Notes: generated by a model not told the origin, from the letters alone. 30,543 nt of DNA from Deltaproteobacteria bacterium (GCA_016717595.1 JADKFE010000010.1:113031-143573); one strand, 5' to 3'; positions 5,101 through 30,309 are shown, numbered from the stretch's first letter. A program made the numbers and translations.

Positions 5101-5513
5101 CAGTTCTTGAGCTCGGCGGAGTTGATGTCGGCGTCGTAGTCCTCGCCGCCCTCGACGCCATCGGCGCCCAAGGAGACGATCTCGTAGCCACGGCCGCTGG
5201 CGGTGTAGATGAACTCGTTGCCCCAGGAGTCTTTGGGCACCGCGCCGTCGGGGAAATACTTCGCCGCGGCGGCGAGGCCTTCAGAGGTGGTGGGGAACTT
5301 GCCCTTCTTCGCCGCGGCGTACATGCCGAGGTTCTTGTCGATCTGCTGCATCGTGAGCTTGGTCGTCTCGACGTTCGCCTTGGCGAAGTTGTCGGCGACG
5401 GCGAAGCCGACGATGCTCATCATCGTGCCGATGATGGCGATGACGACCATGATCTCCACCAGGGTCATGCCCCGGCGACGGCGCCCTAGCGCGCTGGCGA
5501 GGTTCTTCCGCAT
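5100..5513 (-). CDS. gspG: T2SS major pseudopilin GspG
   Basis: MRKNLASALGRRRRG|MTLVEIMVVIAIIG followed by a conserved GspG body (...FPTTSEGL...YEIVSLGADG). A strong AAGGAG Shine-Dalgarno lies 6-7 nt upstream of the ATG. Confidence 0.9.
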   Translation of the reverse strand: MRKNLASALGRRRRGMTLVEIMVVIAIIGTMMSIVGFAVADNFAKANVETTKLTMQQIDKNLGMYAAAKKGKFPTTSEGLAAAAKYFPDGAVPKDSWGNEFIYTASGRGYEIVSLGADGVEGGEDYDADINSAELKN

Positions 5514-8516: not shown

Positions 8517-11062
8517 GGCGCCTCCTCGGGGTTCGTGGGATCCGCGTCGGGATCCCCCTCGTCGCCCTCCACGGGATCCGCGCCCACGCCGCCCGCGCTG
8601 GGCGGGGCCTCGGGGGCGGCCTCCAAGGGCGTGTAGCTCACGTCGTCGATGTTGCTGCGGTACAGAGAGGGCTCGTCGATGATGTTCATCGAGTGACCCA
8701 GCAGCGTGTTCAGCGCCTCGACCTGCTCCAGCTCCGACTTGCCGTAGAAGCGGCGCAAGAACTCCTCACGCTGGGCCACCTTGATGCGGTACACCTCCTC
8801 CAGATCCGCCGGCTCGTCGATGACGTGGGGCGTGAGGAAGATGAGCAGGTTGGTCTTGCGGGTGGACTCGCGGCGGCCACGGAAGAGCGCGCCGACGAGG
8901 GGAAGATCACCCAGAAGGGGGATCTTCGTCTCCACCTGGGTGGACGTCTGGCCCATGAGGCCGCCGATCACGACGGTCTGGTTGTCACGAACCAACACAG
9001 TCGTCTCGGCGCTGCGTTTGGAGGTGATGAAGCCCGCCGTGGAGACGTCGAGGCCTTGGGCGTCCTCTTCGATCTCCGAGACCTCTTGGAAGACCTCCAG
9101 CGTCACATAGTCCGACTCGTTGATCTGCGGCGTCACCTTCAAGGTGATGGCGACGTCCTCACGCTGATACGTCACGAGCGGGTTGTTGTTGGAGTCACGA
9201 CCCGAGGCCACGGGGAACGGGATGTTACGACCGACGACGATCTTCGCCTCCTCGTTGTCCATGGTGAGGATGTTCGGCGTCGAGAGGATGTTCACCTGAG
9301 AGTTCGACTGTAGCGCGTTGAGCACGATGCCGAAGGCGGGGATGGTGAGCGCCGTGCCGCCGGAGAGGGGGTCACTGTTCACGGTGATGCTCTCACCGAA
9401 CACGCCCATCGCCAAGCCCGAGAGCAGGTCCGAGGAGAGGCCTAAGGACGAGGCGCCGAGCTGGGCTGAGCCCAACACGATGCCGCCCGCGTCGCCGGGC
9501 TTGCCGACGTGAACACCGGCGCCGACGCTGATCTCGTCCTCGCTCGCGAGCTCCATGATCACGACCTCTACAAACACCTGCTTGCGGCGGATGTCGAGCT
9601 GGTCGATGACGTGGCGGAGCGTGTCGTAGGCCTCAGGCGAGGCGATGATCACCAGCGAGTTTGTGTTCTCATCGGAGGTGACGCGGATGCTGTCGTCGAG
9701 GAGCGAGGCCGCGCCGCCTTCGCCCGCCGCTGGGCCCGCGTCCGCCGGAGCGCCGCCCGCGGGCTGGTTACGCCGCTGGGCCGCCGTCTGTGTGGTGCTG
9801 CGCTGCTGGGCGGCGCCGCCCGTGCGGTTCGCTTGGCTCAGGTTGGAGAGCACCTGGGCGACGTCTTCAGCCTTGGCGTGCTCCAGATACACCACATGAA
9901 TCTGGGAGCGTGAGGCGGGATCGACGTCGCGGTCAAGCTCGGCGATGAGCGCGAGCACCTTGGCCATCGCCTCTTCGTTCGCGAGCAAGATCAGGGAGTT
10001 GGTGCGCTCATCCGCCACCATCTTCTGGATGTAGCTGCCTTCACTGCCGACGTTTGAGGCGGTGGACGCGGCGGCGGGCGCGGCCTCTGTGGTGGCCCGG
10101 CGGCGGCGGTTGCCCGCGGCCTGGGGCGCCTGGGCGCTGGAGGCAGACGAGGTCGTCTCGGCGGAGCCGTAGATCTGCTCGATGAGGGTCTTGACCTCGG
10201 TGGCCGTGGCGTATTGCAGCGTCACGATCTTGAGCTCAGCCCGAGGCGCGGCCACATCAAGCTGGCTGATCACCTTCCACATGCGGCGAATGTTCACCGC
10301 GGCGTCGGTCACGATGAGCGTGTTGGTGGGCGCGTACGCCACGATCTTCGCCTTGGGACCGGCGAGGCCTTGGGCGACGGAGGAGATGTCGGAGACGCTG
10401 ATGTTGTCGAGCTGGAAGATCTGCGTGATGTACGCATTGGACGACGAGACGGTGGAGCCCTCGTACACCCGCACCGGGGACTGCGCGGCCTCGCCGTTGG
10501 GGATGACCTTGGTGCTGGTGCCCACCTCAACCGTCGTGTAGCCCGCCACCTCCAGGGCCGCGAGGAAGGCCTCATAGGCGCTGGCGATGGTGACGTCGGT
10601 GTGGGAGATGATCGTGATCTTGCCCTTCAGATCGTCCTGCAGGATGTAGTTCCGGCAGGTGATGCGGGCCATGTACTCGACCAGATCGCGGATCTCGACG
10701 TCGACAAAGTCCATGCGCACCTTGACCGTCGGGTCGATGCACGGGGGCTTGTTGACCACAGCGGTCTTGGGGGTGCCGGTGGCGTCGGTGGCGCCGGGCT
10801 CACCGGGGTTGCCGCCCAGCTCAGGCTGCGGGTCCTCGGGCGTGGCGGGGGCCGGCACGGGCAGCGGCGCTGGGCCACCCGGACGAGGCGCGCCGATCAC
10901 GGGGGCGGAGGGCCCGTCGATGCGCGGCGGGATTTGAGGGTCTTCGCCGTCCTGGGCATAGGACGGACGGCCCGCGAGAAGGCCAGCGCACAACAGCACG
11001 CAGCTCGGGATCAGCGCTCGCAACAGGTTCCGGCTCGCCACATCGGCTCCGCGTCCGCTCAA
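8513..11062 (-). CDS. gspD: T2SS outer-membrane secretin GspD, with a Pro-rich N-terminal extension and an acidic C-terminal tail
   Basis: Signal peptide, N-domains and a secretin domain (...VVIGGLMGQ...LLGDLPLVGALF...). 849 aa. The start is uncertain: either a TTG at 11062 overlapping the gspC stop (TTGA) or a GTG at 11041 that has a GGAG SD. Confidence 0.88.
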   Translation of the reverse strand: MSGRGADVASRNLLRALIPSCVLLCAGLLAGRPSYAQDGEDPQIPPRIDGPSAPVIGAPRPGGPAPLPVPAPATPEDPQPELGGNPGEPGATDATGTPKTAVVNKPPCIDPTVKVRMDFVDVEIRDLVEYMARITCRNYILQDDLKGKITIISHTDVTIASAYEAFLAALEVAGYTTVEVGTSTKVIPNGEAAQSPVRVYEGSTVSSSNAYITQIFQLDNISVSDISSVAQGLAGPKAKIVAYAPTNTLIVTDAAVNIRRMWKVISQLDVAAPRAELKIVTLQYATATEVKTLIEQIYGSAETTSSASSAQAPQAAGNRRRRATTEAAPAAASTASNVGSEGSYIQKMVADERTNSLILLANEEAMAKVLALIAELDRDVDPASRSQIHVVYLEHAKAEDVAQVLSNLSQANRTGGAAQQRSTTQTAAQRRNQPAGGAPADAGPAAGEGGAASLLDDSIRVTSDENTNSLVIIASPEAYDTLRHVIDQLDIRRKQVFVEVVIMELASEDEISVGAGVHVGKPGDAGGIVLGSAQLGASSLGLSSDLLSGLAMGVFGESITVNSDPLSGGTALTIPAFGIVLNALQSNSQVNILSTPNILTMDNEEAKIVVGRNIPFPVASGRDSNNNPLVTYQREDVAITLKVTPQINESDYVTLEVFQEVSEIEEDAQGLDVSTAGFITSKRSAETTVLVRDNQTVVIGGLMGQTSTQVETKIPLLGDLPLVGALFRGRRESTRKTNLLIFLTPHVIDEPADLEEVYRIKVAQREEFLRRFYGKSELEQVEALNTLLGHSMNIIDEPSLYRSNIDDVSYTPLEAAPEAPPSAGGVGADPVEGDEGDPDADPTNPEEAP

Positions 11063-16621: not shown

Positions 16622-20210
<3,589 letters not shown>

Positions 20211-20218
<8 letters not shown>

Positions 20219-21197
20219 AGACGTCGAGCCCGAGGCCCTTCACGCGGAGGAGGCGCTCGGCTCGGCGCGCGCGCCCCGAGCGCTGTTGGCCCCGGCGAAC
20301 GTCGATCAGAACCTCCGCGACGCCGCCCAGGTCTGGGCGGTGATGGTGGGCTGCTGGCTGGGCATCATCTTTGGTCCGGCCGCCCTCTATCCGCTCTGGG
20401 TGCTGATCTTGGGGGGTCGCCTGAACGCCTTGGGCGTGATCTTGCACGAGCTCTGCCACATGCCGCCCCAGCGCGGCGGGCGGGCCCTGCTCCTGGAGAT
20501 GTTGGCGGGCTGGCCGATCATGTCCACCGTCGACGCGATGCGCTACCACCACCTGCGCCACCACCGCGACTCAGGGATGCCCACCGACCCGTACCTCAAG
20601 CCGCCCTTGGCCGGCCGCCCGCTGCTGCGCCTGTTCTATTGGCAGCGCACGGGCCTGTTGATCTTCGTGTGGACCCTCCGGATGATCGTGGGCAACCTCG
20701 CCGCGGTGATCCCGGCCCTGCGGACCTTCTACGCGAGGGGGCTCCTTCAAGATCGCTCCGGCGCGCCCCTTCGGGACAGCCCCGAGGTGATCCGCTGCGC
20801 CCAGGCCGAGCGGCGCTTGATCCTGCCGCTCGTGCTGCTCGTGATCTTGGGGGGCCTGTCCCCCGGCGCGCTGGTCTATGGCGTGATCCTCCCCGCTTGG
20901 GTGGCGGGGCTTCTGTGCGGCTGGCGGCTTCTGGAGGAGCACAGCGACGCCCGCGCCACGGACCGCCGGGTCGAGACGACGCTGCGCACCACCCGGGATC
21001 ACAACCTCGACCCCTTGGGGCGGCTCTTCTTCGCGCCGCTCAACGTCGGTTACCACGTCGCGCACCACCTGCACCCCCAGGCCGCAAAAGAGCGGCTGCC
21101 CGAGCTCGCCGCCTGGACCCGCGCGCAGCATCCCGAGGCCTACCCGCGGCTTCGTCGCTGGTGGGGAGGCGACGAAGCGGCCCGCGACGGGGTATGA
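20211..21197 (+). CDS. Membrane fatty-acid desaturase family protein (three His boxes)
   Basis: HELCH, HHLRHH and HVAHHLHP with several TM segments. The likely GTG start at 20211 overlaps the upstream stop (GTGACTGA). The Pro-rich start of track ORF 20130 is shadow. Confidence 0.65.
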
Positions 21198-21225
21198 TGA
21201 GGCGTCCCCGCTGGAGCTAGGCCCC

Positions 21226-22296
21226 ATGCCCGTCTCGTTCACCCGCCGGAACCTGCTCACCTGGCTCGGCGCAGGCGCCCTGACCGCCGCGCTGCCGGGC
21301 CGCGCCTTCGCCAAGTCCGATGAGATCGAGCCCCTCGCCGCGCTGAAGCTCGCGACGATGAACCAGCGCGACGACGCCTGGGGCAAGGTGCTCAGCGTGT
21401 GGGCCCGCCACTTAGAGAAGGTCTCCAACGGCCAGCTCGACACGAGCGTGATTCACGACGGCGGCGATCGGGGCCTCGATGAAGAAGAGGTCACCCGGCG
21501 CCTGCTCGCTGGGGTGTGGGATGGCGGCGTGGTCACGGCCACGGGGCTCTACCAGGCCGCCCCCGCCGCCCAGGTGCTCCAGCTCCCCGGGCTGTTCGGC
21601 GCTTGGGCCGATGTAGAGGGCGCCTTGGGCCGCGCCCGCCCCGAGCTCGACCGCCAGCTCGCCGCCGCCGGGCTCACCGTGCTCGGCTGGGGCAACGTCG
21701 GCAGCCGCTACCTGTTCACCCGCGGCGTCGCCCTACGCTCTCCCGCCGACATGGGCGCCCAGCAGGTCTATCTGCCCAAGGGTGATCTCGCGCTCAAGGC
21801 GCTCTATGAGGTCGCCGGGGTGCCCGCCCCGCTCACCTTTGATGAGGCCGCCGTGCGCCACCGCCTCACCAAGGCCGAGCTCTCCGTGGTGCCCGCCACC
21901 TTGATGCAGGCCGAGTCCCGCGGCTGGCTCGGCGCGCCGCGCCTCGACCAGCTCGTCGCCGTGCGCCTGGGGGTGCAGGTCGCCGCCCTCGTCATGCGCA
22001 CCGACGCCCTGGACGCCTTGCCCAGCCACCTTCGTGAGCTGGTCTTAGAGACCGGCCCCCTCGCCGCGAGCGGCCTCACCACCCGCACTGAAGAGCTCGA
22101 GGCCGCCGCCTTGGCGCGTGTGCAGCAGCTCACCGCGCCGATCGAGCTCGCTGAAGGGTTTGTGACCCAGTGGGACGACGCCTTCAAGGCCGCCCGCGAG
22201 CGGCTCGTCTCCGGCGGCGCCATGCCCCAGGCGCTCCTGGACCTCATGGCCGCCCCCGCCGCGCCTTCGGGCTTCTCCGGCGCCCAAGGCGGCTGA
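21226..22296 (+). CDS. TRAP-type DctP-like periplasmic solute-binding protein with a Tat signal
   Basis: Twin-arginine signal FTRRNLLTWLGAGALTAALPGRAFA. The body matches the DctP pattern (...GLTVLGWGNVGSRYLFTRGVALRSPADMGAQQVYLPKGDLALKALYEVAGVPAPLTFDEA...). No dctQ or dctM nearby. Confidence 0.5.
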   Translation: MPVSFTRRNLLTWLGAGALTAALPGRAFAKSDEIEPLAALKLATMNQRDDAWGKVLSVWARHLEKVSNGQLDTSVIHDGGDRGLDEEEVTRRLLAGVWDGGVVTATGLYQAAPAAQVLQLPGLFGAWADVEGALGRARPELDRQLAAAGLTVLGWGNVGSRYLFTRGVALRSPADMGAQQVYLPKGDLALKALYEVAGVPAPLTFDEAAVRHRLTKAELSVVPATLMQAESRGWLGAPRLDQLVAVRLGVQVAALVMRTDALDALPSHLRELVLETGPLAASGLTTRTEELEAAALARVQQLTAPIELAEGFVTQWDDAFKAARERLVSGGAMPQALLDLMAAPAAPSGFSGAQGG

Positions 22297-22314
22297 GCTT
22301 CGGCGGTCAGCGCC

Positions 22315-22953
22315 TCAGGGTGTAGGTTTTGTGCGCGGCTCGCTGCGCTCAAACCAGAGGTCAAGGAGCGGCCCGAGCATCGGCAACAAGGCCCAGCGCC
22401 AGTTGCGGCCGAGCTCACGGTGAATGAGCATCGAGGTGAGCCAGAACGCCAGAAAGTCGAAGCCCATGATGAACATGAAGGCTTCAGTTCGGGTGGCGTG
22501 CCACCACACGCCGGGCTCGGTGGCGACGAGGCCCCAGGCGCCCAGGCAGAGCGTCGCCAAGGTGAGCACGCTGACGATGCGGCGCCCGGCGAGGAGCTTG
22601 AGCGGCCCCGTCACCGGCTGGCGTTGGTTAAACGCCGAGCGCAAGAAGAAGCCCGGCAAGAGCGCGAAGGCCCCGAGCACGTTGGCGAGGAGCACAAACG
22701 GCCACAGCGGCAGGGGCCGAGCGTTCAAGAGCGGCGCCGCGCGCGCCCCGATCACCCACGGCCAGATGCCCATGAGCATAAAATGCACGATGACGAGGGG
22801 GTCCTCTCCTTCCCAATCCCCGGTGAGCAGGCGAATCACCCACTCTGACTGATCCGGGCGCGCATCGGGCGAGCCGATGAACGACACGGCCATCAGGGCG
22901 ATCCACACGATCAGATAGCCCAGGCGGTGAACCGGCGGCTCAGGGCTCTCCAC
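22315..22953 (-). CDS. Hypothetical polytopic membrane protein
   Basis: 212 aa with several hydrophobic helices and a WPW motif. Overlaps the upstream gene by 14 nt. Confidence 0.5.
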   Translation of the reverse strand: MESPEPPVHRLGYLIVWIALMAVSFIGSPDARPDQSEWVIRLLTGDWEGEDPLVIVHFMLMGIWPWVIGARAAPLLNARPLPLWPFVLLANVLGAFALLPGFFLRSAFNQRQPVTGPLKLLAGRRIVSVLTLATLCLGAWGLVATEPGVWWHATRTEAFMFIMGFDFLAFWLTSMLIHRELGRNWRWALLPMLGPLLDLWFERSEPRTKPTP

Positions 22954-24019
22954 GGGGGGCCTCCTCGGCGGGGGAGCTGGACGGCGAGGCGGGGACGCCG
23001 CCTTTGATTCTCACCCAGGCCGCGAGGAACTTCTGGTGCAGCCAGTCACGGATGTGGTGGCGCCGACGCCACAAAACCACGGTGCCGATGCCCTTGATCG
23101 TCCACCAGGCGATCATCCACTTGCCGGCGTTCAGCAAGAAGTCCGCCGAGGGGATCCAGGCGAAGGGCAGCTCCGTGGCCTCCGCGGGCGCGGCGACGGG
23201 CTCCTCGGTGGCGATGACCAAGGCGTCGTCTCCACAGCGTAGAACGACCTCGACGGGCCCGGCGCGCCAGCTCTGGTCAGGCGCCCCCGGGAGGCTCGCG
23301 ACGAGCTCGACGCGGTGCGGGCCGGGGCTGAGGCTCACGGGCGCGTGGTGGTCAGGGGTGCAAGCGGCGTAGATCAGGTCTTGGCCGCGGCCAACCCAGC
23401 TCCCGCCAAACGGCGCGGGCTCTGGCAGCGAGGCCGACGGGCGCCAGAGCTGGCCGTCTACCCAGGTCTCGAACAGGAAGGCGTCGCGCCAGGGCTCGGC
23501 GGAGGGGTGAAGGGTGAGGCTCACCTTGGCCGAGGCGGCGTCGAGGGCCTCGGAGCAGGCGCCAGAGTCCGTGGCGACGACCACGGGGCCGCGCTCGTGG
23601 GGATCGACGGAGAGCGCGCCCAACGCGACGGGCGGCGGCGCGGGGGCGGTGAGGTTCAGGTGCAGCGCGCGGGGCCCCCGCTGATCCCCGGCGCCGCCCA
23701 AGATGACCCGGCTTCCTGGGCGCAGCGCGCCCTCTTGAGGCCTCACCAAGAGCACGCCGGGGTGGGTGGCGCTGGCCTCCTCGACGACGGGCACCGCCGC
23801 GCCGCCCTCGACGGTGAGCCCCCGCGGCTCATCAAAGGGCGCGCAGCCCGAGCGGAGGAGCGCGATGGCGCTGAGGTTGGCCGGGACCGAGGCGCCGTCC
23901 CCCGGCACCGAGGCCGCGGGGTGGCAAGGATGGGGGGAGCACGCCCAGGCGGCGGCGGGCGCCAGGCCAGAGAGGCCGACCACCGCAGCGGACAGGAGCA
24001 GGGCGCGCTGAAACACCAT
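22940..24019 (-). CDS. Secreted protein with a cleavable signal peptide and a C-terminal TM anchor
   Basis: The internal ATG at 24019 gives MVFQRALLLSAAVVGLSGLAPAAAWA|CSP.... The C-terminal TM is WMIAWWTIKGIGTVVLW followed by RRRHH. Strong GC3 bias. The N-terminal 70 aa of the track ORF is 5' UTR. Confidence 0.55.
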   Translation of the reverse strand: MVFQRALLLSAAVVGLSGLAPAAAWACSPHPCHPAASVPGDGASVPANLSAIALLRSGCAPFDEPRGLTVEGGAAVPVVEEASATHPGVLLVRPQEGALRPGSRVILGGAGDQRGPRALHLNLTAPAPPPVALGALSVDPHERGPVVVATDSGACSEALDAASAKVSLTLHPSAEPWRDAFLFETWVDGQLWRPSASLPEPAPFGGSWVGRGQDLIYAACTPDHHAPVSLSPGPHRVELVASLPGAPDQSWRAGPVEVVLRCGDDALVIATEEPVAAPAEATELPFAWIPSADFLLNAGKWMIAWWTIKGIGTVVLWRRRHHIRDWLHQKFLAAWVRIKGGVPASPSSSPAEEAPRGEP

Positions 24020-24091
24020 CACCTCGGCGCATGACGTGGACACCAGGACGTAGCGCGGCAAGCGGGGGGGTGCATCTTGGCGGATGGTTGA

Positions 24092-24107
24092 TTGGTTGAC
24101 CAACCAA
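24092..24107. promoter_or_regulatory. Perfect palindrome TTGGTTGACCAACCAA, preceded by a direct TGGTTGA repeat, 73-88 nt upstream of the 24019 gene
   Basis: Read directly: ggaTGGTTGAtTGGTTGACCAACCAAaca. Sits in the low-GC intergenic region. Confidence 0.45.
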
Positions 24108-24252
24108 ACACGCGATAGCCCTCCCTTCCGGAGTGGGGCCGGGTTGGCGCCTGCGGCGCCAGTGTTCAGCGCGGCGGTCGGCTCGACATCATGAGCCCGA
24201 CTTCGCAACCGCTCGCACCTTATAGGCATCGATATCTCCTAAAGCCGTAAAT

Positions 24253-24288
24253 CGCTGACTAATACCCTGAGTTCCAGTGGTATCAGCG
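24253..24288 (-). terminator. Imperfect hairpin: CGCTGA/TCAGCG and TACC/GGTA stems, 12-nt loop. The minus-strand RNA continues UUUACGGCUUU. A possible terminator for the upstream minus-strand operon.
   Basis: Self-complementarity read from the sequence. It lies ~330 nt downstream of the 24616 gene end, inside the low-GC spacer. Confidence 0.2.
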
Positions 24289-24615
24289 ACGCCTACGACA
24301 ACTCTTCCGCCTTTGCGGCGATCGACACTCCTCAACGCACGTCGGGAGACTCGCTTTGATGGCGCGCCCCCTCAAATCCAATCTCCACAGATGAGCGTCT
24401 GGGTATGCGCAGCACCATGTCCTGGCTCAGGCAAGGCCCCTGAACGTCACCCCTAAACACGAGGTGATTCTTACACCTCACCCGACAGTCGGTAGCCGAA
24501 GGTCAATCTTAGGAATGCGTCTTGTTTTGTGCCTTTGTAGCCAATAGGCTGAATTCGAGCGTTAGTCTTTGGGTCTGGCCCGATCTGCCCACAATCCTGT
24601 TGGTCATTGTTGTCG

Positions 24616-25071
24616 TCATCGCGAAAGCTTGGAGTCGTCGCGCTCACCGCTGCAGTCATTGACCACACCATCGCAGACCTCTCTCGCACCAGGAAAACGA
24701 CTACGATCCGCATCGTTGCAGTCCCCCTCCTTTGGGGCCGTTCTCTTCGGGCAGACGCTCCCCGCGTACCGCTCGGGGCGAGCGCCCTTCCTCCCAAAAC
24801 CATCCCCGTCGTCGTCGGGATAACAGTCAACCCCCGCCGCAATGGCGCCCTTGGGGGGCTCACCCTCCGCGACGGCGTCATTCGCCGCCCCTTCCCCAGC
24901 CGTTGGTGGCTTTGGCGCCGCTGGAGGCTTCGCGGCCTGCTCGCCGAGGGCTGGCGCCCCCGGGCCGCCCAACGTCTCGTCTTGGGGCGTCGACCGAGCC
25001 CACACGATCCACAACGCGAGCAGCGCGGTGACGAGCCCCACCAATCCGCCGATGATCAGCGGTCTCTTCAT
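24616..25071 (-). CDS. Small membrane-anchored protein with a Pro-rich linker and a MopE-like Cys-rich putative metal-binding motif
   Basis: N-terminal TM MKRPLIIGGLVGLVTALLALWIVWA. The motif is VDCYPDDDGDGFG...GDCNDADRSRFPGAREVCDGVVNDCSGERDD (DCDD...PGAxExCDGxDNDC repeat). Its ATG overlaps the upstream stop (ATGA). Confidence 0.6.
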   Translation of the reverse strand: MKRPLIIGGLVGLVTALLALWIVWARSTPQDETLGGPGAPALGEQAAKPPAAPKPPTAGEGAANDAVAEGEPPKGAIAAGVDCYPDDDGDGFGRKGARPERYAGSVCPKRTAPKEGDCNDADRSRFPGAREVCDGVVNDCSGERDDSKLSR

Positions 25072-25844
25072 CTCGTCGTTCGGAAGGGGCTTAGGGGGCC
25101 CTCACTGCGCTGGCGGCGCGCGCGGCTGCTCAAGGGCAAGGGAGACAGCGCGGGAGGCGGCGAGGGAGACGCTGCGGTCAGGCTCGCGAGCTGGGCGGCG
25201 GTGGGGACCGGGATGTTCAGTCGTGTCTCCGCCTCGCTCAAGGCGCTCGGCAGCGGAGCGGCCGCGGGGAGAGGCGCAGCGCTCGGGCGCGCCGCAACCG
25301 TCGAGGGCCGGGTCGGCGGCGAGATCACCGTCTTGTCGTCGTCCTCCTCGTCGTCCTCGTCGAGCTCTGGGTGAAGCGCGACGTGCTGGAGCTGGGCCGT
25401 GCGGAACCGGTCCGAAGGCGCCATGAGCCCCGCCGCAGGGGCGGGCTCGGCGGCGGGGGACGGGGGCGCTCGCCGGACTCGGCACGAAGCTCTTCCTCTT
25501 CTCCGGCGCGGCTCAAGCTCAAGCTCTTCCGTAGGCGGACGAAAGACGGCGTCGGGGAAGTCGCTGGTCGCCCTCGACAGGCTCGGCCAACCCCGGCCGA
25601 TGTCCAACCCGGCGGCGTCGATCTGCGAGCGGCCCTCTCTCAGGCAGCTCGGTCTGTTGCGCCTGCGGCGGGCGAGGCTCAGCCGCCATCCGCTCGCCCT
25701 CCAGACCGGCCCTTCTCGACGGTCAGAGCGGTCGAGGAGGCCTCTTCTGCCGCGCCAGTCTCCGCGGACCCTGCTCCTTGAGGGCTCTGCCTCCCTCTCG
25801 TCTGAGTCACGAAGCGCGGCCGCTCCTCCCCGGGATGCGAACAT
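25068..25844 (-). CDS. Hypothetical Arg/Pro/Ser-rich, low-complexity protein. Frame uncertain.
   Basis: It is the only ORF spanning the gap. Both ends overlap neighbouring start/stop codons in this frame (TGATG at the 5' end, ATGA at the 3' end). The composition looks like a disordered protein or an off-frame artefact. Confidence 0.3.
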   Translation of the reverse strand: MFASRGGAAALRDSDEREAEPSRSRVRGDWRGRRGLLDRSDRREGPVWRASGWRLSLARRRRNRPSCLREGRSQIDAAGLDIGRGWPSLSRATSDFPDAVFRPPTEELELEPRRRRGRASCRVRRAPPSPAAEPAPAAGLMAPSDRFRTAQLQHVALHPELDEDDEEDDDKTVISPPTRPSTVAARPSAAPLPAAAPLPSALSEAETRLNIPVPTAAQLASLTAASPSPPPALSPLPLSSRARRQRSEGPLSPFRTTR

Positions 25845-26512
25845 CAGGCCGGCGGGGCAGGGGGCTCCGGCTCCAACGGCGGGCGCCCCGAGGGCGGAGG
25901 ATCACCCTCAGCGGGCTCCTCGGCGATGCGCCCTGTAGACAGCGCCTCCCGCTCCTCTACAGTCGGCCTATCGAGCACCCCCGGCGCGCCCGCGCCCACC
26001 AGGAGGCTCTTCAGCGCGTCGAGCTGCGCGGCACGCTCCGGTCCAGGCGGCAGGCGGGACGACCAGAGCTCGCGGATCAGCGTGGCGGCGATGGGCTCGG
26101 GGGGCGTCGTCGTGGCGCCGATGAACATGCGGCGCGCGAGGGGATCGCCCTCCCAGTGCTCCAGCGGCGCCAGAAGCTCGTACAAGACCGGCAACAAGAG
26201 GCCGGGATCACCTCCGTACGCGGCGCGAAAGATCCCCCGCGCCGCCGCGCGGTCGAGGGTGCCCAAGGGGTAGATGAGGCTGTGCTGCCACACCGCCCGG
26301 CGCCCATCAAACTCCAAAAACTTGCGTCCGAACAGGGTGATCACGTCACCCACCCCCGCGAGCGACTCCTCATAGAGCGCCCACGGGTCGGGCTTGGTCT
26401 GCTGCAGACGAAGCCCCACCTGCTCCACGGGCCCGACGCCTCGCCCCCGAAGCTCGGTGACGAAACGATAGTCCTGCCTCCAGCGGAGATTTAGGAAGTG
26501 GGCGGGCTTCAC
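25844..26512 (-). CDS. Hypothetical protein, 222 aa, translationally coupled to the GTPase gene
   Basis: The GTG start overlaps the GTPase stop (GTGA). Good GC3. No recognisable motif. Confidence 0.5.
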   Translation of the reverse strand: MKPAHFLNLRWRQDYRFVTELRGRGVGPVEQVGLRLQQTKPDPWALYEESLAGVGDVITLFGRKFLEFDGRRAVWQHSLIYPLGTLDRAAARGIFRAAYGGDPGLLLPVLYELLAPLEHWEGDPLARRMFIGATTTPPEPIAATLIRELWSSRLPPGPERAAQLDALKSLLVGAGAPGVLDRPTVEEREALSTGRIAEEPAEGDPPPSGRPPLEPEPPAPPA

Positions 26513-27609
26513 CGGTCGGCGCTCCCGTATACCTCAGTGCTCCCCGTGAACAGATGATCAAGCTCTAGTCCCGCCACGATCGCGCCCAGGCACTCGTGAA
26601 CCCCGGCGCCTGAGCGCGCAGACCCGAACACATACCAGGAGTCTCGTCGGGGGTTGAAGCTCTTCTGCAGCAGGAGATCGACGTGCTGGCGTAGCTCCAA
26701 CATCGCCGGATCCGCCTCGGGGCCCTGCGCTGGCACGTTGGGGAGCTTGTCTACCTTGTTAAAGAACACCACGATCGAGGAGACGACCTCCCGGGCGACG
26801 TCTCGCTCGTAGGTGGCGCGCAGCCGCGCCTCGCTGACATAATCCGCGTTCTTGGCCACCCCCGCGCAGACATCCCAGATCATCAGCGCCACCGCGCGGC
26901 CTTTGTTCTCTTTGTGATGGCGATCGATCATGTTCCCGATCTGCTCGGGGGAGCCGCCCGCGATGTCCACAAAGTCAACGGCGTGCAGCACACGCAGGCC
27001 GTTCTCGTCTCCCCAGCACAGCGGCACCGGGCTCGTCCGATATTGCGCCATGGTGGACTGTATCGAATCTAAATCTTTCGGCGTCGCGGTGGGGTTGGTG
27101 AGGCGCTCCATCAGCGTCGTCTTCCCGCCCTTGGACATCCCGTCCATAAAGACGGTGTGGATACGAAGCGGCACGGCCTGCTTCGCGAGCTCCATGTTGA
27201 TGCGGTTGATGTGCGCGAGCTCTCGCTTGAGATCGGTGTTCTGCGCGTCGTAATCTCGATTGGCCGTGCGGTACTCGCTGAGCTGGCCCTCGACCTGGGC
27301 GGAGCGGGACTTGAGGTGGGTGAGCTGGGCCCGAAGATCGGTGACCAGCTTCTCTTGTTCAGCAAAGCTGGCCAACATCCCCTCGCGCTCCCGCTGATGT
27401 CCCTCCATGCGTGAGATCAGCTCGCGCCTCTGCTGAGTCGAGTCATCCACTTGCGCAAGAAGCTCAGCGGTGTGCTGCTGCGCCTCCTGGAGCTGGGCCA
27501 AGATGGCGTTATGCTCTTGTTCGTGATCCCGAAGCTGAAACCCCAACCAAACCACGACGACGACCAAGACAACAACCGAGACGAGCAGAGCGACGACGAG
27601 AACTTCCAT
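26509..27609 (-). CDS. Membrane-anchored coiled-coil Ras-like small GTPase
   Basis: N-terminal TM MEVLVVALLVSVVVLVVVVVWLGF. About 140 aa of heptad-like coiled coil. G1 GMSKGGKTT, G3 DIAGG, G4 NKVD, G5 SAR. ATG at 27609 with a GAAGGTG SD; the track begins at an upstream GTG, 27618. GC3 is visibly lower than in the flanking genes. Confidence 0.65.
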   Translation of the reverse strand: MEVLVVALLVSVVVLVVVVVWLGFQLRDHEQEHNAILAQLQEAQQHTAELLAQVDDSTQQRRELISRMEGHQREREGMLASFAEQEKLVTDLRAQLTHLKSRSAQVEGQLSEYRTANRDYDAQNTDLKRELAHINRINMELAKQAVPLRIHTVFMDGMSKGGKTTLMERLTNPTATPKDLDSIQSTMAQYRTSPVPLCWGDENGLRVLHAVDFVDIAGGSPEQIGNMIDRHHKENKGRAVALMIWDVCAGVAKNADYVSEARLRATYERDVAREVVSSIVVFFNKVDKLPNVPAQGPEADPAMLELRQHVDLLLQKSFNPRRDSWYVFGSARSGAGVHECLGAIVAGLELDHLFTGSTEVYGSADR

Positions 27610-27640
27610 CACTGACACCTTCGAGACCTAGTTTCAAGCG

Positions 27641-27739: not shown

Positions 27740-29272
27740 ATGCTCGCGCCTTCGCAGATCCGTCCCGGCCAAGTCTTTGGTAAGTACACCCTCGTCAAGC
27801 CCCTCGGCGAAGGAGCCTTCGGCGGCGTGTGGCTCGCAGAGCGCGTCACCAACCACCAGCAGCACCAGCTCAACCGCCCCGTCGCCTTGAAGCTGCGCCA
27901 TCGGCACGAGTCGCAGACGGACATGCACGACGCCAACCTGTCCTTTCTGCGCGATTGGTACGTCGGGAACCTCATCCAGCACCCCAACATCGTCGCGATT
28001 CAAGACGTGGTGACCGAGGGCCCCGACATCGCCATCGTCATGGAGTGGGTCGACGGGTACACCTTTGGCGACATCTTCCGCCGCCTGACGTCTCTGGACG
28101 CGTTCTTGCCGTTGTCCGCGGTGCTTGAGGCCGGGATCGGCGTCTGCGCGGGGCTGCACGCCTTACACTCCGTTCGGCGCCCCGACGGCACCCCCTACAA
28201 CATCGTGCATCGCGACATCAAGCCCCAAAACCTGATGATCGACCTTCACGGCGTGGTGCGGGTGCTTGACCTCGGCATCGCCAAGAGCGAGGAGCTCCCC
28301 GGAGAGCGCACCGCGCACGGCATCGCCAAAGGCACCATCGAGTACATGGCGCCTGAGCAATACCTGAGCGACAACCTCTCTCCCGCCACCGACCTCTTCC
28401 CCTTGGGGGTGGTGCTGTTTGAGCTGGCGACAAAAGAGCGGCTCTTTCGGCCTGAAGCGGACGACTCCCGGCTCTTTCGGCGCAAGCGCAGCGGCCACGC
28501 GGCGAGCCGAGTCAACGCGCATGAGGCTCGCCTCGGCCCCTTCGCGCCTGTGCTGCTGGACTGCCTGGCCATCGAGCCTGAGGATCGCCCGCAGAGCGCT
28601 GAGGAGCTCGGTCATACGCTGCAGGGGCTCTTGGACGGCGCGCCCCGCGGGCCGGGGCTGCACGACCTGATGTCGGCGTTTCGAGGGGAGATCCCGCCCC
28701 GAATGGCCCAGAGCCCGGAGTGGGCGCCGTTGGCGCTGGCCCTCGATCGCCCCCGCCGCCCAACCCCCGTGGTTCATCTGCCGCGAAAAAACATCGCGCT
28801 GCTGCTGCCTGGCCTCGACATGCCAGAGACGATCGTCGAGGCGCTCTCGCCCATTGATGAAGACGGTGATGTTGCCATTGAGCATAGCGTCGTTGTTCCC
28901 GCGACGCTCCCAACCCCAGAGGCGAACCTCACGCCCCTCCCCCTCCCCGACCCGCCCACACGCTCGCTGCCGTTCTCGCCGACGCCCAGCCCGATCCCGC
29001 TCTCGGGCCAGACCACGAGGATCAGGACGACGACGCCGTCTCCGACCCCACCACCGACGCCGACCCCACCCCGCCCAGAGCGCGCCCGGTCACGCCGACG
29101 CCACCGCCCACGCCGGTCGTGGCGCCGCCAGCCCCCCCGCCGCTCATCCGATCCGCGTTTGTGCCGCCCAAGGCGCCGACGCCGCCCAGCCCTCCGCCCC
29201 GCGCCCCGATCGCGGCGCCGCCGCTGGCGCCCGCGTTCATGTCAACCAGAACGCCCTCCCCCGCGCTCGTGA
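27740..29272 (+). CDS. Hanks-type Ser/Thr protein kinase. The N-terminal kinase domain runs to about residue 300. The C-terminal ~170 aa in this frame are Pro-rich, then Arg-rich, and are probably off-frame.
   Basis: Gly-loop LGEGAFGGV, VALKL, HRDIKPQN, DLG and APE motifs. After ~29060 the frame turns Arg-rich (RSRRRHRPRRSWRRQ...), whereas frame 1 reads as a natural Pro/Ala linker. Confidence 0.8.
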   Translation: MLAPSQIRPGQVFGKYTLVKPLGEGAFGGVWLAERVTNHQQHQLNRPVALKLRHRHESQTDMHDANLSFLRDWYVGNLIQHPNIVAIQDVVTEGPDIAIVMEWVDGYTFGDIFRRLTSLDAFLPLSAVLEAGIGVCAGLHALHSVRRPDGTPYNIVHRDIKPQNLMIDLHGVVRVLDLGIAKSEELPGERTAHGIAKGTIEYMAPEQYLSDNLSPATDLFPLGVVLFELATKERLFRPEADDSRLFRRKRSGHAASRVNAHEARLGPFAPVLLDCLAIEPEDRPQSAEELGHTLQGLLDGAPRGPGLHDLMSAFRGEIPPRMAQSPEWAPLALALDRPRRPTPVVHLPRKNIALLLPGLDMPETIVEALSPIDEDGDVAIEHSVVVPATLPTPEANLTPLPLPDPPTRSLPFSPTPSPIPLSGQTTRIRTTTPSPTPPPTPTPPRPERARSRRRHRPRRSWRRQPPRRSSDPRLCRPRRRRRPALRPAPRSRRRRWRPRSCQPERPPPRS

Positions 29273-29988
29273 GCGCCCCCAGCGGCGCCGGTGAGCGGCC
29301 TTCACCCGCCGTCGAGGACGAAGACGACGGGCGTCCTACGGTCTTGATCGTCGTGGCCGCGATGATGGCGGGGGTCATGCTGGCGGCGGGAATGTTGGTG
29401 GTGAGCCAGATCATGTTCAAAGACCCCAAGCCCATCCCCGAGGAGGTCCTGGTCAACAAGCCCGCCGAGGACCTGCCGCCCGAGGACGTGCCGGCCGAGG
29501 TCGCCCCTCCCCCCGAGGCCGACCCGTGTGATGGCGTCAGCGACGAGGACGGCGACGGCTATCTCCCTTGTGCCCCCGAGACCGATGCGGCGCTGGCCCG
29601 CGTCAGCCTAGGCGAGCTCAAGGCGAACGACTGCGACGACAAAGATCCCAAGGTGTACCCCGCCGCCAAAGGGGACGGGCGCGGCGTCGACAACAGCTGC
29701 GACGGGAAGATCGAAGGGAAGGAGCGGCCCGTGACCGAACCCCCGCCGCCGCAGGAGACCTGTTTTCAAGACCTGGACGGAGACGGCTACGGAAACGTGC
29801 TGAAGCCCCTGCGCGGGGAGGCCTGCCGTGGAAAAAACGTGAGCAAAAACAGCGAGGACTGCCTCGACACCAACGCCCGCTGGTACCCAGGCGCGGCGGA
29901 GCCGCCCGGATCGCCTGACATGAACTGCGACGGGAAACCGACGCCCGCGGTCGAGAATCCAAGCTCCCTGTCGCGCCGCAGGTGCTGA
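29119..29988 (+). CDS. Pro/Ala-rich linker, TM helix and an extracytoplasmic MopE-like Cys-rich domain (three motif copies). Either a separate gene or the frameshifted C-terminal half of the kinase.
   Basis: Frame 1 is open from 28888 and has good GC3. TM TVLIVVAAMMAGVMLAAGMLVVSQIMF. Motifs ANDCDDKDPKVYPAAKGDGRGVDNSCDGK, CFQDLDGDGYG and EDCLDTNARWYPGAAEPPGSPDMNCDGK. In-frame candidate starts at GTG 29119 or ATG 29239. Confidence 0.55.
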   Translation: MAPPAPPPLIRSAFVPPKAPTPPSPPPRAPIAAPPLAPAFMSTRTPSPALVSAPSGAGERPSPAVEDEDDGRPTVLIVVAAMMAGVMLAAGMLVVSQIMFKDPKPIPEEVLVNKPAEDLPPEDVPAEVAPPPEADPCDGVSDEDGDGYLPCAPETDAALARVSLGELKANDCDDKDPKVYPAAKGDGRGVDNSCDGKIEGKERPVTEPPPPQETCFQDLDGDGYGNVLKPLRGEACRGKNVSKNSEDCLDTNARWYPGAAEPPGSPDMNCDGKPTPAVENPSSLSRRRC

Positions 29989-30254
29989 GGGCCACGGGCT
30001 CGCTCAGAGGCAAGAAGCTCACCGTGAACGCTGCGCTCGACCCAAACGGCGTCCGGTGCAAGGCGCTCTATGTTCATGTCAGCGGCTCTCCCAGCTTCAT
30101 CACCGGCGAGACCACCATCCAACAGATGAGCGGCGGCCCCACCGATTGGCAGGCGAGCGTGCCCGTAGACCAGAAAGAGTTGTACTTTAAGCTCATATGC
30201 AACGACAATGGCCCTTTGCGCATCGGCGCCAAGTACTACGGGGTCTCGCAATGA
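29982..30254 (+). CDS. Beta-rich domain ORF in frame 0. A possible further C-terminal extension of the receptor, or a small separate gene.
   Basis: Frame 0 is open from 29919 and reads ...KKLTVNAALDPNGVRCKALYVHVSGSPSFITGETTIQQMSGGPTDWQASVPVDQKELYFKLICNDNGPLRIGAKYYGVSQ. It overlaps the end of the MopE-like ORF by 7 nt. Confidence 0.4.
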   Translation: MLRATGSLRGKKLTVNAALDPNGVRCKALYVHVSGSPSFITGETTIQQMSGGPTDWQASVPVDQKELYFKLICNDNGPLRIGAKYYGVSQ

Positions 30255-30309
30255 GCGGCGATGTCTGTTATGCTGCGGCCATGAACCTTGCCGCGGATAG
30301 GGTTGCCCT

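Follow-up and report, generated by a model that had tools for sequence, protein, structure and literature searches.

The window, as we call the whole 30,543-nt stretch of DNA that was analyzed, comes from a MAG (MBK9645016.1, IPO67_07680). Positions 24020–24615 were described in the initial annotation as a low-GC intergenic island with a perfect palindrome and no convincing ORF. This part of the window contains the following features:

22940–24019, minus strand: gene for a 359-aa protein with a signal peptide and a C-terminal transmembrane (TM) helix, the likely regulated target (ORF call)
24020–24075, minus strand: near-invariant leader of the 359-aa gene
24088–24107, no strand assigned: 20-bp dyad TTGATTGG-TTGA-CCAACCAA (pattern match), which contains the 16-mer at 24092–24107; candidate TetR operator, "site 1"
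24108–24636, minus strand: frame-scrambled 3' end of a long gene, corresponding to a variable, low-GC, Cys-containing C-terminal ectodomain (blastn and frameshift-aware alignment)
24253–24288, minus strand: hairpin specific to the window, within the scrambled region
24616–25071, minus strand: open 151-aa piece of the long gene, with a TM helix and a MopE-type Cys motif (Pfam PF11617)
25068–26512, minus strand: upstream parts of the long gene, as two ORFs (25844–26512 and 25068–25844) in differing frames (tblastn)
26509–27618, minus strand: GTPase-like coiled-coil gene (GTP_EFTU), at the head of the operon and overlapping the long gene by 4 nt

The drop in GC content is real: 24020–24615 is 58.1% GC, as compared to a mean of 67.6% for the window (SD 3.9%, 596-nt windows), and the minimum among all 596-nt windows of the 30.5 kb (56.2% GC) starts at 24161. 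From about 24100 to 24700, the GC3 coding signal is absent in every reading frame. The related remarks about codon composition also hold. The GC3 of the ORF at 24471–24881 is unlike that of the host (0.64 overall and 0.55 for the portion within the island), and the GC3 of the GTPase-like gene is lower than that of the left-hand genes (0.80 vs. 0.90).

Related loci were found in Myxococcota MAGs and metagenomes (L001–L005, L014, L017, and L018) by using the adjacent 359-aa protein as the query. In six of these relatives, one ORF (727–807 aa) spans the DNA that is equivalent to the island, and its stop codon lies 0–20 nt ahead of the dyad. This long-gene ORF encodes 795 aa in L005, 807 aa in L002, more than 675 aa in L003, 784 aa in L014, and 727 aa in L017. 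In L018 (protein P0001), it encodes 390 aa, with just 84 nt of contig upstream of the called start. The long ORF of the relatives begins at the ortholog of the window's ORF 25844–26512, and by tblastn, the 795-aa protein of L005 matches the window in three successive frames (residues 1–234 in frame 3, 219–481 in frame 2, and 466–630 in frame 1), with the changes of frame near 25840 and 25090. The island itself aligns to L005 by blastn (E = 8.6e-26, 69% identity, 25 gap openings). So, the description of the island as intergenic and without a convincing ORF is true of this assembly only: in the relatives, the homologous DNA forms the 3' coding end of an intact long gene. The C-terminal coding part of the long gene is also low in GC in the intact alleles (52–62% GC and GC3 of 0.57–0.72), and this intrinsic property of the C-terminal ectodomain, shared by all intact alleles, accounts for the dip in GC in the island. 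We consider it likely that 24108 to about 24636 is the final ~520 nt of the long gene, rather than a spacer, and that the palindrome beside it is a candidate TetR operator. Whatever the cause of the scrambling, the stretch is coding (or formerly coding) sequence and not an intergenic element.

The long protein is predicted to begin with a conserved cytoplasmic domain at its N-terminus, joined by a variable acidic linker to a single TM helix, after which come the MopE Cys motif and, at the C-terminus, a hypervariable ectodomain. The piece at 24616–25071 scores above the gathering cut-off for PF11617 (35.5 bits vs. 27), its product shares 89.5% identity with P0001 across 153 aa, and its frame agrees with that of the relatives' long ORFs. 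Besides PF11617, no family could be assigned to the long protein, and its C-terminal domain has a single database homolog. A fold search with a single-sequence model of P0001, which was a poor model (pLDDT of 43), gave no match at E ≤ 0.001. The best matches were generic Ig/FnIII-like beta-sandwiches (E ≥ 0.007), and we set the model aside as evidence. The hypervariable ectodomain lies at 24108–25900 in the window, at 5300–5893 in L005, and at 9400–9936 in L017. Although L017 and L005 are 98.3% identical at the nucleotide level in the left-hand block, the last 170 residues of their long proteins have just 26% amino acid identity. There are at least four classes of ectodomain alleles (L017/L018/P0001; L005; L002/L003; and L014).

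The GTPase-like gene and the long gene are also found as a pair in L014 and L017, and the long gene is probably translationally coupled to the GTPase-like gene upstream of it. The match of the GTPase-like gene to GTP_EFTU is weak (25.3 bits, slightly under the cut-off of 26.5). The window and L014 have an intact copy of this gene (369 and 366 aa, respectively), but in L017 (6720–7756), it is broken into ORFs of 289 and 56 aa. The split gene suggests that the L017 assembly contains single-base indel errors, so indels do cause trouble in assemblies of this set.

How did the window lose the reading frame? A frameshift-aware alignment of the window to L005 contains 11 frameshifts and two in-frame stops (from about 24630 to 24130), and an alignment of the island to P0001 contains 14 frameshifts. 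We also made a three-way alignment of 24108–24720 with the intact alleles of L017 and L005, which are identical to each other at 257 of 635 columns (about 40%). The window agrees with both alleles at 241 of these 257 columns. The other 378 columns distinguish L017 from L005; here, the window has the L017 state at 197, the L005 state at 154, and a state of its own at 27. The matches to the two alleles form 94 runs in 613 nt, as compared to 174 ± 9 if they were random. The remainder of the long gene has longer single-allele tracts. Rather than having diverged on its own as a separate allele, the island is a fine mosaic of an L017-like class and an L005-like class.

The most likely cause of the frame loss, which we favor with some reserve, is that the MAG consensus blended two co-occurring strains. 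(We take the MAGs of this set to be long-read based.) A second gene in the window is broken as well: the Ser/Thr kinase gene at 27740–30273 (plus strand), which encodes 819–842 aa in L014 and L017, lies in three frames in the window (27740–29023, 29236–29949, and 29958–30251). The breaks fall at its variable regions, which are patchy too, and the assembly problem is probably the one that also affects the island.

Alternatively, the island could be a real pseudogene, that is, a natural recombinant of two classes of variable-domain alleles that lost its frame, so that the 151-aa ORF is the sole remnant of the ectodomain. We consider this possible but unlikely. A natural origin would fit with the clean flanks (the left flank aligns to L005 with zero indels, or 0 gap columns, across 7 kb) and with the private state of the window at about 7% of the informative columns. 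The long clean single-allele tracts in the rest of the gene also resemble recombination tracts, and the frame junctions at 25844 and 25068–25071 coincide with TGATG and ATGA overlaps. However, 94 switches in 613 nt between alleles that are about 40% alike is far finer than expected from homologous recombination. Also, the gene is intact in six relatives, including L017 and L018, which share one intact allele; L018 is an Illumina-type contig (with a SPAdes-style name), and L017 is a MAG from the adjacent accession range. The kinase gene, a second gene, is likewise broken at variable regions only. Finally, we searched the window for silent donor cassettes that could have contributed to the mosaic and found none.

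If the sequence is real, the stop/start overlaps at 25844 (TGATG) and 25068–25071 (ATGA) could couple the translation of the pieces. In L005, where the gene is intact, the ATGA of 25068–25071 occurs as well and is in frame.

We now turn to the palindrome. The 16-mer TTGGTTGACCAACCAA is at the reported position (24092–24107, or 73–88 nt from the ATG at 24019), and the direct TGGTTGA repeat is present (24085–24091 and 24093–24099). The 16-mer is not a perfect palindrome, however: its arms are 7 nt with a 2-nt centre, and its reverse complement, TTGGTTGGTCAACCAA, is mismatched at both central bases. We describe it instead as part of a 20-bp dyad with arms that are complementary at 7 of 8 positions; other registers are 7+2+7 or, with extended arms, 9 of 10. 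The pattern TTGNTTGG-N4-CCAANCAA matches site 1 without a mismatch, while shuffled windows give 0.13 matches at two or fewer mismatches. The dyad can be written as TTGATTGG-N4-CCAAyCAA, and it lies 69–88 nt ahead of the next gene, just past the position of the long gene's stop. Elsewhere in the window, the 16-mer does not recur at up to three mismatches, except for self-overlaps (0.02 expected by chance).

The dyad is conserved in the relatives. Its core TGnTnGGTCAACCA is unchanged across nine aligned loci, and the DNA on either side is variable. In the seven loci that share the gene order of the window, the core TGGTTGACCAACCA is always found at this position upstream of the 359-aa gene. The length of the arms differs between genomes but their complementarity is maintained (17 of 18 positions in L005 and 9 of 9 in L014). 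A promoter scan of the spacer in the window found no sigma-70-like promoter overlapping the dyad, and a scan for intrinsic terminators found none at the dyad or at the hairpin (the single match, at 24721, is at chance level).

A regulator that might bind the dyad is suggested by L001, where the upstream neighbor of the 359-aa gene is a divergent TetR gene with its ATG 13 nt from the dyad. The protein has a TetR_N domain (PF00440, 1.2e-14) and a BetI-type C-terminal domain (TetR_C_6, 6.1e-11). Orthologs of this TetR with 82–100% identity were collected together with their context (L006–L013, L015, L016, and L019). In every ortholog, the gene is preceded by cTTGACAc-N-TATAGT-ATGGTTGACCAACCAATCTATGAGCGTCT-ATG, where N is a variable spacer. 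The tetR promoter (TTGACA-18-TATAGT) is a near-consensus sigma-70 promoter, with a score of 11/12 in the promoter scan and 0 matches in shuffled sequences. The copy of the dyad at tetR begins within the −10 element and stops 13 nt short of the ATG, and its core is invariant over −10/+1 in the orthologs examined. Overlap with −10/+1 is the classic location for the operator of an autorepressor. The centre of the dyad at tetR differs slightly from that of site 1.

Further copies of the dyad were sought with a weight-matrix scan of 192 kb and of four loci that were added later (shuffled sequences gave 0.6 matches per whole set). Only four classes of sites were recovered in about 190 kb. All of them are within 20 kb of tetR, and there were none in the 24-kb left block. 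Besides site 1, these are:

Site 2: candidate operator of tetR
Site 3, L015 14882–14901 and L008 14872–14891: within the gene for a 375-aa protein (tetR operon), with conserved arms and a variable 4-nt centre
Site 4, L006 4256–4275 and L015 4264–4283: at a convergent junction, past the stop of a kinase-MopE gene

The C-terminal modules of the long gene and of the kinase-MopE gene at site 4 are paralogs. On a contig of a close relative (JADJYZ010000025.1, which comprises L017 and L015), all four classes of sites lie within 20.2 kb, and the 359-aa gene is separated from tetR by 15,348 nt. A site no more than about 130 nt upstream of the 359-aa gene is present in all arrangements.

Some other details of these sites are worth recording. 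Site 3 translates as VDW(T/V)TNQ, and 24084–24107 of the window would give MVDWLTNQ on the plus strand, which is probably a coincidence of motifs. Site 4 is 23 nt past the stop of the kinase-MopE gene and 12 nt past a convergent gene that ends in an RRRRD tail. Similar Arg-rich tails also end the genes just upstream of tetR, and in L006, the stop codon of the gene upstream of tetR overlaps the −35 hexamer of tetR. The tetR operon (L015 10001–15752 and L008 10001–15740) contains tetR and genes for an MBL-fold hydrolase, a 365-aa protein, a DUF2252 protein, the 375-aa protein, and an LTD-domain protein. The MBL-fold hydrolase matches Lactamase_B and also has a Pfam hit to the Anti-Pycsar protein Apyc1.

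The window itself contains no TetR gene or remnant (all tblastn matches had E > 2). One TetR protein, P0036, has an NCBI accession that neighbors the window's MAG, a hint that the MAG may encode such a regulator, and its sequence context is a 2.2-kb ENA contig. A literature search for a described operator that matches the half-site TTGATTGG, or for BetI operators, gave no usable match, and no close solved homolog of this TetR with a known operator was found. We also considered a RutR-like half-site (TTGACCA) but set it aside, as the match covers just one half.

Homology, conservation, the position in the promoter, and the clustering of the sites give the operator reading good comparative support, from which we infer binding and the direction of regulation. 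The suggestion in the initial annotation that the palindrome is the operator of a dimeric HTH regulator thus gains support from comparison, as the core is conserved both at this position and over the tetR promoter. We propose that a TetR dimer would bind the dyad, that it would repress its own operon from the copy over −10/+1, and that at site 1 it may control or insulate the 359-aa/212-aa gene pair.

The gene next to site 1 has some unusual features at its 5' end. No Pfam family was found for the 359-aa protein. The ATG at 24019 reads ACG in L003, L014, and L008, which makes the GTG at 24016 the likelier start. The 100%-identical NCBI protein P0015 (373 aa) has 14 codons beyond the ORF that starts at the ATG, so it begins farther upstream. 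The leader (24020–24075) has just four variable positions in nine loci, and the coding DNA of the same loci differs by up to 18%. Its collinearity with the tetR-adjacent relatives stops at 24075. A C7 run in the leader could pair with the GAGGTG Shine-Dalgarno sequence. The leader also carries a conserved upstream ORF of 18 codons (MHPPACRATSWCPRHAPR), which ends in a TGA that overlaps with the ATG of the gene (24019). A structured leader RNA was considered and rejected: the leader folds with ordinary stability (z = +0.3), and Rfam gave no match.

Instead of an operator, the dyad could be a structural element, such as the hairpin of a terminator or insulator, a low-copy REP-like palindrome, or a recombination anchor that bounds a variable cassette. 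Sites 1 and 4 do lie 0–24 nt past the stops of two paralogous MopE-module genes, the homology with the relatives breaks at the dyad (24107), and the RNA hairpin is modestly stable (z = −2.6). The complementarity of arms of varying length, described above, also fits such an element. Nevertheless, a structural role for the dyad seems doubtful. There is no T-tract and the terminator scan was empty at the site; one copy lies between the −10 element of tetR and the ATG in all orthologs, and another is inside a coding region. Also, conserved arms around a variable 4-nt centre are the pattern expected of a site that is contacted by a protein, and there are just four site classes in ~190 kb, all of them near tetR.

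A more elaborate idea is that the long gene encodes a strain-specific surface recognition module that is wired to a cytoplasmic GTPase and whose hypervariable ectodomain is maintained as deeply divergent classes of alleles (26% amino acid identity in strains with flanks that are 98% identical), that the dyad at the 3' boundary, with a further copy past a paralogous MopE-module gene, is both a TetR site and a fixed anchor for swapping cassettes, and that the mosaic is the real product of such an exchange. We view this combination as distinctly doubtful.

Another explanation is that the region rightward of 24.1 kb is a horizontally acquired island that was inserted between the 359-aa gene and tetR, with the 14–15-nt core repeats acting like att sites. 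A 15.3-kb block, from the 359-aa gene to tetR, is missing in L001 and L008–L010, where tetR adjoins the 359-aa gene, and is present in the window, L002, L003, L005, L014, and L017. The core is in direct orientation at both ends of the segment, and the genes in the segment have lower GC3. The break in identity is sharp: the window is 97–100% identical to L005 over 16943–24107, abruptly 54–70% identical in the island, and 66–98% identical from there to 30000. Even so, we consider acquisition improbable. A tRNA scan of the window found none, and no integrase, transposase, or other mobility family is among the recorded Pfam hits of the segment, most of whose genes have no hit at all. In the genomes that lack the block, the junctions are at 24075 and just before the −35 element of tetR, and not at the repeat core. 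Furthermore, in a tree of the left-hand block, the tetR-adjacent genomes are not monophyletic, and the junction sequences differ between them. Because presence and absence are interleaved and the junctions differ, it is more parsimonious to assume two or more losses of an ancestral block than a gain. Neither a mobility gene among the recorded Pfam hits, nor a tRNA or att target, nor a clade-restricted presence marks this segment as an integrated island. The initial annotation proposed that the segment was horizontally acquired or was evolving differently. The second part stands, given the fall in identity to L005 from about 24108, but a recent acquisition is not supported, as the segment is in most lineages and was apparently lost at least twice. 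As a separate observation, the distribution of the block among the relatives is discordant with the flanking-block tree, which points to recombination or to two or more independent losses.

Finally, it is very improbable that the island encodes an unannotated ncRNA, for example around the hairpin at 24253–24288: this hairpin exists as reported (−20.5 kcal/mol; z-scores of −4.2 for the gene strand and −4.0 for the opposite strand) and the window has no intact ORF here, but Rfam gave no match (for the whole window at gathering thresholds or for 23900–24800 at E ≤ 10), the orthologous segments fold weakly and lack the hairpin (−8.0 kcal/mol in L017 and −10.7 kcal/mol in L005), and the region codes for protein in six relatives and is the least conserved DNA of the locus.

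Overall, we read the locus as an ordinary regulatory site plus a coding region that was garbled in assembly, which is unsurprising to specialists. For annotation, the lesson is that a hypervariable coding region that has been collapsed in a MAG can look like a "gene-free, low-GC island." The reads should be checked before such islands are mined for ncRNAs or counted as pseudogenes. The analysis also yields a candidate small regulon for an uncharacterized TetR of uncultured Myxococcota, which would comprise four 20-bp sites, the tetR/MBL-fold hydrolase/DUF2252/LTD operon, and the secreted-protein gene pair. The most interesting by-product is the strongly polymorphic membrane-protein gene beside a GTPase, which may be a strain-recognition locus.

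How do these elements compare to known systems? First, the arrangement at tetR resembles that of autoregulated TetR pairs (TetR-tetO, QacR-IR1, or BetI-type) in that a 20-bp dyad lies over −10/+1 of a sigma-70-type promoter for the regulator's own gene. As in those systems, there are extra copies of the site by neighboring genes and the layout is divergent in some relatives; here, the regulator combines a TetR_N HTH with a BetI-type C-terminal domain. However, it is not BetI itself (it scores 72.7 bits, as compared to the equivalog cut-off of 201), and, unlike in the known pairs, window-type genomes have a copy of the site that is 15 kb from tetR and right past the stop of another gene. Second, the long protein resembles the polymorphic MopE-type surface proteins of myxobacteria, which carry Cys-rich "putative metal-binding motifs," as it has a membrane anchor and the PF11617 Cys motif and then, in this case, a strain-divergent ectodomain. 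It is presumably also comparable to variable receptors such as TraA. In contrast to MopE-type and TraA-like proteins, the long gene is coupled to a gene for a cytoplasmic GTPase-like protein. Third, the island itself looks like the consensus of a MAG in which strains have been collapsed: near-identical clean flanks surround a short hypervariable stretch that alternates between two haplotypes and has lost its frame.
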